Assembly (NCBI GenBank): GCA_036677555.1
Contig: JAVBWG010000011.1
Coordinates: 175,716-239,715 of the forward strand
DNA length: 64,000 bases
Direction: 5' to 3'
Source of the DNA: Methanomassiliicoccales archaeon
GTDB taxonomy: Archaea; Thermoplasmatota; Thermoplasmata; Methanomassiliicoccales; UBA472
Part shown: positions 11,652 through 13,882 of the stretch, piece by piece
Numbering within the stretch: position 1 is the stretch's first letter
Layout: the number at the start of each line of letters is the position of its first letter
Position numbers and translations under genes: made by a program
The notes under the pieces: generated by a model
What the model was told of the DNA's origin: nothing
Databases searched by the model: none
Seen by the model: the letters and a program-made list of their open reading frames with translations, nothing else

Positions 11652-12284
11652 TCACATCCTTATCTTCTTGGGTCGGACGCTCTCCCCGTAGTAGGGGTTC
11701 TGGAACTCATCCCAGTACACCAGGAACTTTCGGCGGCGCACTTCGCCGCTGGAAAGACAGAAGGCATCCATCTCCTTGCGGATGGGATCGATCACCAGGG
11801 CGGTGTGGTAAGGCCTGTCGAACATACCCTTCTGCGTGGAGATGTCCGTTGACGATAGGAAGCAGCCGTGCCCAGGGTGCGAATGATACCAGCCCACGAG
11901 AACGTAGCGGAAGCGGGCGCACTCCAACGAGGCGAATAGAGACTCGAAACCCTCGGGATCGAACCTCACACTGACCGAGGTCGCCTCGAGATCGGTGGTC
12001 GCCACGTCCCGCACTACCGTATACTCCACGCCCTGATGGGTGAAGACCTCGCCCAGCAGGAAGCCCATGACCTCCAGTCCGGCCTTGACCTGAGAGAGGG
12101 CGTGGTTGCGCACCTTCTCCTCGGCGGTCTTGAACAGGTACATCTCCGCCCCGCTCCTGTCACCGTACAGCGGCAGGGCCTCCCTGGGAAGCCACTTGTG
12201 CGCCAACGTCCGTTCATCGGCCGGAGGGACCATCTCCTCGATCTCCAAGTCCTTACCGCCCAGTATGACCGGCGCTCGCTTCAT
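11652..12284 (-). CDS. Rpn11/CSN5-like JAMM (MPN+) metalloisopeptidase, last gene of the ubiquitin-like cassette
   Basis: The ATG at 12284 forms an ATGA overlap with the E2 stop. It has the catalytic Glu context ([11 protein letters not shown]) and [22 protein letters not shown], a complete H-x-H-x7-S-x2-D JAMM motif in the form seen in eukaryotic Rpn11. The longer track ORF (to 12464) is an Arg/Pro-rich extension that overlaps the E2 gene. Confidence 0.85.
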   Translation of the reverse strand: [210 protein letters not shown]

Positions 12285-12787
12285 CCTCGCACCACCTTGG
12301 GAGCTGGGGCGACTATCACTGGCGGCGTTCGGCGGGGGGCGGTGTTGAAGTATTGGGCGGCGGCCGTGCAGGTATCGGTCCCGAAGGGGCTGTTCCCGTT
12401 CGGGGAAATGAGCAAAGATTCCAGCCCTTTGATGAAATTTACCAGTGTGGAATTGAATGACCATTCCGAGAGCAGTTTAATGCAGACGTGACCGCCGTCC
12501 TCGGGCATCATTATGTTGGGGTGAAAGATGGGCGTCCTCCAGATCACCAGTGGTTTCTCGAACGGATACTCCCGGCCGATGATCAGATCCAGGCGATGGC
12601 CGTAGCGGTAACTGACCTTGCCGTTGTCCATGACAGGACCAGGGATGCCTTCCAAGGCCACCTCCACCTTCAGAGGGAACGCCGTAAGGTGCTCCTCGCT
12701 GTAATCGAAATCCTTGGGAAGATTGTTCCGACAGGCTTCCAGCTCATTCCTCAACCGGATGTACAGGATCTCCAGGGGCAGGGTCAT
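12281..12787 (-). CDS. E2-like ubiquitin-conjugating enzyme (UBC fold)
   Basis: 168 aa. REYPFEKPLVIWRTPIFHPNIMMPEDGGHVCIKLLSEWSFNSTLVNFIKGLESLLISPNGNSP reproduces the UBC core: YPF-x2-P, the HPN triad, catalytic Cys, a downstream Trp and LL-x2-PN. There are ATGA overlaps at both ends. Confidence 0.85.
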   Translation of the reverse strand: MTLPLEILYIRLRNELEACRNNLPKDFDYSEEHLTAFPLKVEVALEGIPGPVMDNGKVSYRYGHRLDLIIGREYPFEKPLVIWRTPIFHPNIMMPEDGGHVCIKLLSEWSFNSTLVNFIKGLESLLISPNGNSPFGTDTCTAAAQYFNTAPRRTPPVIVAPAPKVVRG

Positions 12788-13029
12788 TTGTTCCCGCCCT
12801 CGGGATCGGGAATCAGCTCCAGCTCCTCGTTGGGCTGAACCTCCAGCTCCTGGACCTTCTGCTGGCCCCTCAGCAGGCGGCGCCCCTTGCGGATGACGTA
12901 GGCGCCAGGGTCCTTTTCCCAGTAGGCCGATACGCCCTCAATGATCTCCTCCACGGTGTTCTCCATCTCAAGCTCCATGTCGACCGTGGCACCGGTCTCT
13001 GCGTTCCTGACCCTTACCCTTACCACCAT
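12784..13029 (-). CDS. Ubiquitin-like beta-grasp protein, precursor with C-terminal GG followed by NK
   Basis: 81 aa from the ATG at 13029 (MVVRVRVRNAETGATVDMELEMENTVEEIIEGVSAYWEK...ELELIPDPEGGNK). It has a strand-strand-helix pattern of ubiquitin size and a di-glycine two residues before the stop. The stop overlaps the E2 ATG. The N-terminal 47 codons of track ORF 12784..13170 overlap E1 and look non-coding. Confidence 0.7.
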   Translation of the reverse strand: MVVRVRVRNAETGATVDMELEMENTVEEIIEGVSAYWEKDPGAYVIRKGRRLLRGQQKVQELEVQPNEELELIPDPEGGNK

Positions 13030-13087
13030 TTTATCGTCCCGGACAATCTCTGGGAAGCAGGTATAATCCTTTCCATTAGAGTCAGCA

Positions 13088-13882
13088 TTATGATAATTTG
13101 GCCGATAGATGATTGGGACAGAATGGATCGACCTCCAATTCATAAACATCGCTGGTCCCGGCAAGGCCATCGTAGTGCATGACGTGCGCCATGGCCGTCC
13201 GTCCCGACAGCACCTTCACCGCTTCCCGCACCTGAACGGCGGCGATCACGCTGGTGGTGGTTATCTCGGCCGGCATCTTGGGCTGATAGAACACTGTGCC
13301 CTGACCGGTGCAGCTGAAGCGGCGTTCCATGACCTTGAAATGGCTGCGGTTCATTCCGCACTGCAGGCATGGCGTATAGGGGGGGACCACCGATTGCACC
13401 CTTCCCCTGAACCCGTCCGTGCCACCGTCCACATAGGGCACCCGGGCATGATAGGCGTTGGCGTTGAGATGCAGCCTGGCCGCCACATTGTCCAGGCATC
13501 CAAGGATGACATCGTACCTCTTCATCCCTTCCGGCCCCAGGGATTGCACCTTGCCTTCTATACCGACAATGCGCGCATCCGGGTCCAGCTCCCCGGCCCT
13601 TTCCGCGGCCAGTGTCGCCTTTCCCTTCCCGGACGATTGATCTCCTTCCCGGAACAGCACGCAGCGGCTGAGGTTCGACCGAACGACGGAGTCCATGTCC
13701 AGGATGTCCAAATAACGGAACCCGAACAATACCAGGTCCTTGATGGCCTCGTTCCCCAGCGCCCCCGCGCCGACCACCAGCACTCTTGCCGATCCCACCC
13801 TTTCCAGGTCGACCCAGGGGATGAGCCTGGTTCTGTCGTGACGGTCCTCGTCCCTCTCTCCGGGACGGATCAGCTCGGCCAT
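13088..13882 (-). CDS. E1-like ubiquitin-activating enzyme (ThiF/MoeB/UBA adenylation domain only)
   Basis: 264 aa. RVLVVGAGALGNEAIKDLVLFGFRYLDILDMDSVVRSNLSRCVLF is the E1 nucleotide-binding plus SNL-x-R motif. Cys motifs are PCLQC, SCTG and FCPNH. It is the first gene of the four-gene operon. Confidence 0.85.
   Translation of the reverse strand: MAELIRPGERDEDRHDRTRLIPWVDLERVGSARVLVVGAGALGNEAIKDLVLFGFRYLDILDMDSVVRSNLSRCVLFREGDQSSGKGKATLAAERAGELDPDARIVGIEGKVQSLGPEGMKRYDVILGCLDNVAARLHLNANAYHARVPYVDGGTDGFRGRVQSVVPPYTPCLQCGMNRSHFKVMERRFSCTGQGTVFYQPKMPAEITTTSVIAAVQVREAVKVLSGRTAMAHVMHYDGLAGTSDVYELEVDPFCPNHLSAKLS

Follow-up and report, generated by a model that had tools for sequence, protein, structure and literature searches.

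A putative ubiquitin-like conjugation operon with a short E1 and no linked RING ligase in a Methanomassiliicoccales archaeon

Do four adjacent genes in a Methanomassiliicoccales archaeon encode a ubiquitin-like conjugation pathway built on the eukaryotic plan, and if they do, is that pathway more likely to serve housekeeping, sulfur transfer or defense against viruses? The genes are situated at 11652..13882 of a 64 kb stretch of DNA from this archaeon (the window, within which all positions are counted), and an earlier reading of the letters (the original prediction) had described them as a compact cassette of a ubiquitin-activating enzyme (E1), a ubiquitin-like modifier (Ubl), a ubiquitin-conjugating enzyme (E2) and a JAMM metalloprotease. 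Profile searches, comparisons with PDB sequences and predicted structures upheld the assignment of all four proteins. We consider it probable that the cassette is a chromosomal, vertically inherited conjugation operon of the Thermoplasmata whose products would act in a five-step cascade with a housekeeping role, and not in defense.

The four genes are co-directional on the minus strand, in the order E1 (13088..13882, 264 residues), Ubl precursor (12784..13029, 81 residues, beginning MVVRVRV and ending ELIPDPEGG79-NK), E2 (12281..12787, 168 residues) and a JAMM/MPN+ metalloprotease of the Rpn11/CSN5 type (11652..12284, 210 residues). The list of open reading frames (ORFs) and the sequence confirm these limits, which are those originally predicted, along with the joining of the last three genes through ATGA overlaps of stop and start codons (Ubl with E2 at 12787..12784, E2 with JAMM at 12284..12281) and the presence of every motif that had been quoted for the E1, the E2, the JAMM and the GG-NK end of the small protein. 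Longer ORFs beginning at 12464 for the JAMM (270 residues) and at 13170 for the Ubl (128 residues) were set aside, as the shorter starts are favored by the ATGA coupling and by the orthologue alignments. The sole untranslated gap in the operon is the 58-nt spacer between the E1 and Ubl genes (13030..13087, minus strand), which contains the hexamer ATTATA ~35 nt upstream of the Ubl ATG; this may be an internal promoter, a function that is speculative. The operon itself is likely transcribed from a TATA-like box, TTTTTTATAG, at 13906..13915 on the minus strand, as both the box and its spacing are kept upstream of E1 in close relatives (loci L005-L018). Because this box is only ~26 nt upstream of the E1 ATG, its position suggests that the mRNA is leaderless or nearly so. 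Two further sequence blocks, AATATCA and TACTGGTACGGTCC, are found upstream of the box in the intergenic region that separates E1 from the divergent ppk gene (13883..14008), are kept in loci L005-L012, and may represent an operator or a regulatory site shared by the two promoters. The composition of the cassette is host-like, as had been predicted, with a GC content of 0.598 compared to 0.607 for the window outside a low-GC island, and a GC content at third codon positions (GC3) of 0.74-0.83, similar to that of the neighboring genes.

The E2 is a canonical UBC-fold conjugating enzyme with an HPN motif and a catalytic Cys. It matches the Pfam model UQ_con at 9.5e-14 (51.6 bits, cut-off 27) and carries YPFEKP, H89-P90-N91, the catalytic Cys102, W109 and P129-N130, all of which are invariant in 12 diverse orthologues, in addition to an N-terminal helix (LP..IL..RLRNE) of which residues L3, P4, L8, R11, L12, N14 and E15 are invariant. 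When searched against PDB sequences with phmmer, the E2 matched UBC12 (6.9e-9) and E2-C (1.6e-8), the HPN and catalytic Cys being aligned and separated by a 3-residue insertion. Its AlphaFold2 (AF2) model has a predicted local distance difference test score (pLDDT) of 70.5, and Foldseek returned only eukaryotic E2 structures for it, with a probability of 1.0 and a template modeling (TM) score of ~0.5, which, in conjunction with the UQ_con match, places the product of 12281..12787 in the UBC fold. The NCBIfam models gave no match to this protein.

The JAMM protein, judged by its sequence, is an MPN+ protease resembling Rpn11 and CSN5. It matches the Pfam model JAB at 9.2e-14 (51.7 bits, cut-off 22.5), above its score of 30.8 for Prok-JAB, and has the active site motif E71, H134-x-H136-x7-S144-xx-D147, which is kept in full (E..HxHx7SxxD) in 70 orthologues. 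Its best PDB sequence matches were Rpn11 (2e-16), CSN5 (3e-14) and the Rpn11 of Caldiarchaeum (1e-10), with AMSH (3.5e-5) and BRCC36 much weaker at about 4e-5, and no PDB chain described as an archaeal JAMM of the small archaeal modifier protein (SAMP) type matched it at E<=0.01. The desampylase model NF041370 gave 30.4 bits against a cut-off of 130, and among the matches listed in a homologue search there were only close Methanomassiliicoccales relatives. The protein also has an N-terminal extension of ~45 residues (residues 1-48) preceding the MPN core, to which no family was matched but in which a PP...R...H-x-W-L...Y pattern is kept in 70 orthologues; this extension could serve to dock the Ubl, the E2 or the E1. 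Some public gene calls, including those of JGI and ENA on M. luminyensis-type contigs, omit the extension, giving proteins of 160-165 residues.

The Ubl was the most difficult of the four proteins to place by sequence searches. It matches the Pfam ubiquitin model weakly (E=0.013), and a profile search of the PDB gave 0.07-0.3 for mono-ubiquitin, with E-values that are inflated on polyubiquitin chains, so structure prediction was needed to settle the fold. The AF2 model has a pLDDT of 93 and a predicted TM score (pTM) of 0.82, with the topology beta-beta-alpha-beta-beta-3(10)-beta, and its top Foldseek matches were ubiquitin, SUMO2, ISG15 and Hub1 (TM 0.82-0.88, root-mean-square deviation 1.3-2.1 A), with neither MoaD nor ThiS among the matches listed. 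We regard the assignment of 12784..13029 to the beta-grasp fold, and specifically to its ubiquitin type, as secure on the strength of this model. The sequence ELIPDPEGG is invariant across the aligned orthologues, 37 of which end exactly at the GG, while the remainder have unconserved tails of 1-12 residues; in those cases where the Ubl and E2 genes overlap, the tail arises because translation of the Ubl frame runs on into the beginning of the E2 gene. An invariant terminus followed by a variable tail is the pattern that a protease-processed precursor would show. In public records (P0400-P0519) every named Ubl orthologue among those listed is a "hypothetical protein", most have no Pfam domain, and several gene calls are too long at the N-terminus (108-115 residues), starting inside the E1 gene, an annotation gap that affects both the labels and the starts of these proteins.

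The E1 combines features of two kinds of enzyme. It matches the Pfam model ThiF at 6.5e-45 and has the motifs GxGxxGNE, DMD..V.SNL.RC and GCLDN, a pair of elements (C172xxC175 and C253PxH256) that are likely to form a Zn site, and a Cys residue in the crossover loop (Cys190, in RFSCTG), with the nucleotide-binding, CxxC/CPxH and Cys190 motifs kept at >=95% in 74 orthologues. In MoeB/ThiF/UbaA-type enzymes the crossover-loop Cys position is used for thioester or acyl-disulfide chemistry. The top PDB sequence matches of the protein are eukaryotic, SAE2/UBA2 (3e-27), UBA3 (3.5e-24) and UBA1 (3.6e-22), and the ThiF and MoeB of Escherichia coli score below these at ~2e-17. However, residues 177-203 of the E1 align across SAE2 165-386, so that a 26-residue loop replaces the catalytic-Cys domain of ~220 residues, and in the PDB alignment the protein ends after the adenylation domain, with neither a catalytic-Cys domain nor a C-terminal ubiquitin-fold domain (UFD). 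It is therefore a single adenylation domain of the size of ThiF or MoeB and, by analogy with MoeB, is presumably a homodimer.

To survey the locus in other genomes we took one genome per GTDB species, found 203 with a relative, and re-annotated the best 80 of the 203 plus four metagenomic contigs (84 loci in total). The best 80 are labeled Methanomassiliicoccales, Thermoplasmata or as broader archaeal groups, the closest E2 being 93% identical. In a collection of 5.8 billion proteins the E2 homologues were Methanomassiliicoccales proteins, the best of which were 87-89% identical, and when 1.84 billion cluster representatives were searched exhaustively with a profile, 30 clusters scored E<1e-30 and 87 scored E<1e-10, the general E2 superfamily following after these (3261 at E<1e-3). 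The E2 is 59% identical to a protein of the cultured Methanomassiliicoccus luminyensis that is already named "ubiquitin-conjugating enzyme E2" in RefSeq, 37-43% identical to members from Sysuiplasma and Methanomethylophilaceae, and 32-35% identical to weaker relatives in Desulfurococcaceae, Thermofilaceae and Bathyarchaeia. About 60 of the 84 loci have the order E1-Ubl-E2-JAMM, followed by a convergent gene for an hxlB-like SIS protein and a gene for an AP_endonuc_2 TIM-barrel protein; most of the exceptions are contig ends, and all named loci with this synteny belong to Methanomassiliicoccales or Thermoplasmata. With this pair, the four-gene cassette is present in nearly all of the 80 best-matching species genomes. 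Both the gene order and the downstream pair are shared with the cassettes of M. luminyensis and other Thermoplasmata; the cassette is conserved across the class and most likely vertically inherited. Recent horizontal transfer from eukaryotes was considered and rejected because of the low identity of the E2 to eukaryotic E2s (24-27% where the sequences align), the operon with its overlapping codons, the host-like GC3 and the class-wide conservation.

Further support that the genes act jointly comes from the spacing within the operon and from gene fusions. In 82 related loci the E1-Ubl spacer is typically 50-100 nt, whereas at the next two junctions, Ubl-E2 and E2-JAMM, almost every locus has genes that overlap or are separated by <=16 nt, which argues that the genes are co-expressed. 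Six fusion-type metagenomic relatives of the E2 were inspected (P0122, P0140, P0129, P0151, P0158 and P0163), among which are natural E2-JAMM fusions (P0122 and P0140) and Ubl-E2 fusions (P0129, whose junction contains GG, and P0158), and these support a link between the functions of the Ubl, the E2 and the JAMM. One of the E2-JAMM fusions carries, in addition to a long tail of low complexity, a zinc ribbon at its C-terminus, and the other a PQQ-like (pyrroloquinoline quinone) beta-propeller; the JAMM motif of P0122 reads HSAP, and that domain may be inactive. There is also a group of proteins of ~225-232 residues in which an N-terminal Ubl-like domain without GG is fused to an E2.

The folds and motifs, the residues of the active sites, the structure of the operon, its conservation and its non-mobile setting were observed or computed; each catalytic step of the cascade, its possible independence of an E3 ligase and its physiological role are inferred. 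In the proposed cascade the Rpn11-like JAMM would trim the C-terminal Asn-Lys from the Ubl, exposing Gly79, which the MoeB-sized and presumably homodimeric E1 would adenylate with ATP, probably going on to form a thioester on crossover-loop Cys190. The Ubl would then be passed by transthioesterification to Cys102 of the E2 and from there to substrate lysines, either by E3-independent, UBC9-type direct transfer or via an unlinked factor, and the same JAMM would remove the conjugates and so reverse the modification. Each step has a precedent in the homologous Ub, E1, E2 and Rpn11 proteins of Caldiarchaeum, which carry out these steps in vitro (PMC5654768, PMC6043591). As for the role of the pathway, the conservation of the cassette at the level of the phylum, and at a locus that is fixed, speaks for housekeeping, for example proteostasis or regulation, and not for defense.

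The original prediction had left open whether the cassette serves proteostasis, signaling or antiviral conjugation. The question is narrower than that, as the fixed synteny in about 80 species and the lack of any match to the PADLOC models of the Bil E2 and Ubl speak strongly against defense. An antiviral system would be analogous to the bacterial Bil system or to Cap2/Cap3 of type II cyclic oligonucleotide-based antiphage signaling systems (CBASS). The list of parts is indeed that of BilABCD (E1, E2, Ubl and JAMM deubiquitinase, with no E3), in which the deubiquitinase pre-processes the Ubl as we propose for the cassette (Chambers et al., PMC10557695; Hor et al., as cited there), and the E1 has weak generic matches in PADLOC to the E1-E2 (CBASS) models (1.7e-12) and to BilD (1.1e-4). 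Yet the BilD model matches only residues 34-145 and the E1-E2 models only the Rossmann part of the E1, neither the E2 nor the Ubl has any PADLOC match (E<=1), and the JAMM matches only at >=1.5e-3. The E2 has HPN...Cys and not the CEHH described for BilB (PMC11354881), and the 264-residue E1 is without the two-domain pseudodimer of inactive and active adenylation domains (~450 residues), with its helical Cys domain, that characterizes BilD. The features of type II CBASS, an E1-E2 fusion protein (Cap2) beside a cGAS-like CD-NTase, are likewise not seen, as the E1 and E2 are separate genes and no nucleotidyltransferase neighbor was found. Unlike Bil, which is patchy and linked to defense, the cassette is at a fixed syntenic locus in ~60 of the 84 Thermoplasmata loci, and it has no phage or plasmid homologues, in agreement with the non-mobile context predicted for it: tblastn with the E2 gave no match among 50,697 phage and 72,556 plasmid records, and IMG/VR yielded only giant-virus E2s of the eukaryotic type at ~35% identity. 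On these PADLOC, tblastn and IMG/VR results the defense reading was rejected, and we regard it as barely credible. Use of the Ubl mainly as a sulfur carrier for cofactor synthesis or tRNA thiolation, of the MoeB/ThiF-MoaD/ThiS or SAMP/UbaA type, with conjugation absent or secondary, appears only a little less remote. The E1 does have the size and architecture of MoeB/ThiF, with a CxxC, a crossover-loop Cys and neither Cys domain nor UFD, and its best NCBIfam matches are ThiF/MoeB models, all of them far below cut-offs. The cassette also resembles the SAMP/UbaA/HvJAMM1 system of Haloferax and other archaea in its E1, which is of MoeB size and has a Cys in the crossover loop, in its beta-grasp modifier with GG at the end and in its JAMM for reversal. 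But sampylation has no E2 and its SAMPs are MoaD/ThiS-like, whereas in the cassette a ubiquitin-type modifier is translationally coupled to a canonical HPN/Cys E2 and an Rpn11-like protease, neither of which has a role in sulfur transfer. Also against a sulfur carrier are the absence of MoaD and ThiS from the listed Foldseek matches of the Ubl, the higher scores of the E1 adenylation core with eukaryotic E1s than with ThiF/MoeB, and the scores with the UbaA model NF047750 (72.6 bits, cut-off 450) and, as given above, the desampylase model.

A closer contest concerns the E3. The prediction that the cassette has no RING/E3 gene was sustained by a scan in which the C3HC4/C3H2C3 RING pattern was found in no ORF of >=40 residues of the window, nor in any from the +-6 kb around the E2 gene of the 84 related loci, and a survey of related genomes, as had been proposed, recovered the cassette with its synteny and without a linked RING pattern. 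Lineage-specific inserts (~360-390 residues following the JAMM; ~275 residues antisense between E1 and Ubl) were considered as hidden RING E3s and discarded, as they are not RING-like and both are absent from the window. That a protein can be modified without an E3 is known from UBC9, which serves as our working model for an E3-less operon. Alternatively, the same cascade may be E3-dependent, its substrates being selected, as by the srfp RING protein in Caldiarchaeum, by a ligase (RING, U-box or unrelated) whose gene is in another part of the genome. The strong conservation of the N-terminal helix of the E2, where eukaryotic E2s bind the E1 and the E3, the stimulation of the Caldiarchaeum E2 by its RING protein (PMC5654768) and the fact that the sequence covered is 64 kb of a genome all favor an unlinked ligase, whereas the empty pattern scan and the lack of any additional gene consistently linked to the cassette across about 80 species do not. 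We would give an E3-dependent cascade a minority chance, albeit a considerable one. Several points also count against our preferred reading, that of a vertically inherited housekeeping conjugation operon. The E3 search covered the RING pattern in the window and the +-6 kb flanks, and the genome may encode U-box, HECT, RBR or novel E3s elsewhere; the E1 lacks the UFD by which canonical E1s recruit the E2; the E2 model is of moderate quality only; similarity to Rpn11 is the sole feature that suggests a link to the proteasome; and in the literature searched we found no paper on the Methanomassiliicoccales/Thermoplasmata cassette itself, nor experiments with it. With regard to the recruitment of the E2 to an E1 without a UFD, helix 1 of the E2 is, from its conservation, the obvious candidate surface.

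Among the known systems closest to the cassette is the Ub-E1-E2-srfp(RING) operon with adjacent Rpn11 that is found in Caldiarchaeum subterraneum (Aigarchaeota) and Asgard archaea (Nunoura 2011, PMC3082918; Hennell James 2017, PMC5654768; Fuchs 2018, PMC6043591). In each, the modifier has the ubiquitin fold and is made as a precursor with GG and a tail, the E2 is of the UBC fold with HPN/Cys and the Rpn11-like JAMM stands alone, and in both the genes are archaeal, operonic and of host-like composition. The cassette differs in having no RING E3 in or near it, according to the pattern scan, in its 264-residue E1 without the catalytic-Cys and C-terminal ubiquitin-like domains typical of Cluster I/II E1s (PMC5654768, Supplementary Note 4), and in its host, which belongs to the euryarchaeal Thermoplasmata and not to TACK or Asgard. 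It differs, too, in that its JAMM gene is part of the operon and coupled to it in translation. The cassette probably belongs with the operons of the archaeal "Cluster III", defined by short E1s without a C-terminal Ubl domain (Hennell James 2017, Supplementary Note 4), with the bacterial Ub/E1/E2/JAB operons of Iyer, Burroughs and Aravind (as cited in Hennell James 2017), and with the "JAMM-3" group of Fuchs 2018, a paper that also described prokaryotic JAMMs nearer to Rpn11/CSN5 in Ub/E1/E2 operons without an E3. In terms of the described architectures, the cassette shares with these systems a short E1 that has no C-terminal Ubl domain, accompanied by genes for a Ubl, an E2 and a JAB protein, an E3 not being obligatory. 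Unlike the cassette, in which the adenylation core of the E1 gets better scores with eukaryotic E1s than with ThiF/MoeB, Cluster III has been described as allied to bacterial systems. The eukaryotic SUMO pathway (SAE1/SAE2-UBC9) is another point of comparison, SAE2 being the best PDB sequence match of the E1, but there the E1 is heterodimeric and has both a Cys domain and a UFD, and SUMO proteases are cysteine proteases and not JAMMs.

The novelty claimed in the original prediction was overrated, and its own caveat applies, as the cassette is annotated in close relatives and conserved across Thermoplasmata, including M. luminyensis. The MPN protein of that species was noted as one of two archaeal Rpn11-like proteins by Fort et al. 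2015 (PMC4453063), who did not describe the operon, and a 2023 preprint placed a "Ca. Thermoplasmatota E2" clade at the deep branch of the archaeal E2/UEV (ubiquitin E2 variant) clade (bioRxiv 10.1101/2023.07.25.550441). The type of system is known and partly catalogued, and the cassette is another, biochemically uncharacterized, member. What remains of interest is the minimal E1, the lack of an E3 in the operon, the class-wide vertical conservation and the cultured host. To our knowledge, the only archaeon whose E2-dependent ubiquitylation has been reconstituted is Caldiarchaeum subterraneum, which is uncultured. A ubiquitin-fold tag, an HPN E2 and an Rpn11-like protease are fixed in the Thermoplasmata, and since M. 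luminyensis grows in pure culture, living cells could be used to study the substrates and physiology of the pathway. With its E1 so reduced, the cassette raises the question of how a canonical E2 is recruited and charged in the absence of a UFD, and the wide vertical distribution beyond TACK and Asgard archaea is relevant to how early archaea gained the E2 step; the gain in annotation, that of Ubl gene labels and over-long starts, is smaller. More tentatively, and with the odds in our view against it, the cassette may represent an E3-free minimal ubiquitylation machine, in which a MoeB-sized homodimeric E1 without UFD or Cys domain directly charges a canonical HPN E2. Such a machine would be a living intermediate, standing between sampylation, which has no E2, and the E1/E2/E3 cascades known from Aigarchaeota, Asgard archaea and eukaryotes, and would perform essential housekeeping tagging across a euryarchaeal class that includes cultivable methanogens.

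The flanks of the cassette are as originally predicted. Next to it is the convergent pair encoding the hxlB-like SIS protein, with a score of 147 bits for TIGR03127 that is just under the cut-off of 160, and the AP_endonuc_2 TIM-barrel protein, which has a Lys-rich tail (10066..11651, Pfam/TIGRFAM profiles). The synteny of this pair with the cassette across Thermoplasmata may reflect a functional link or merely be old. On the other side, divergent from the cassette, is a polyphosphate cluster of ppk1 (14009..16135), a fusion of CHAD, metallophosphatase and Ppx domain III (16093..18279) and Ppx/GppA (18272..19831); ppk is upstream of the cassette solely in the 14 closest relatives among the 84 loci.

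A few of the surveyed loci depart from the common arrangement. In the uncultured archaeon CAZSUE010000027.1 (L052, 5342..6507) there are two tandem E2 paralogues, with no E1, Ubl or JAMM detectable within +-6 kb of them. In L056, L063 and L064 (about 7150..8370), all from Thermoplasmata other than Methanomassiliicoccales, a co-directional gene follows directly after the JAMM, and its product of ~360-390 residues has hydrophobic segments at both the N- and C-termini and appears membrane-anchored. In L057, L066 and L077 the antisense gene of ~275 residues is situated between E1 and Ubl, and its repeats look prenyltransferase-like by eye.

The statement that no integrase is nearby holds for the cassette itself, but the window does contain a tyrosine integrase (34586..35632), 21 kb away and unrelated to it. 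This gene is part of the low-GC island (34507..~43000, GC 0.43-0.52 compared to about 0.60), which starts at tRNA-Val(GAC) (34507..34579) and also encodes a helix-turn-helix protein (37489..37995), an Eco57I/MmeI-like type IIG restriction-modification enzyme of 1308 residues (38822..42748) and several ORFs without a Pfam match. The island looks like an integrated element carrying a defense gene and unrelated to the ubiquitin cassette.

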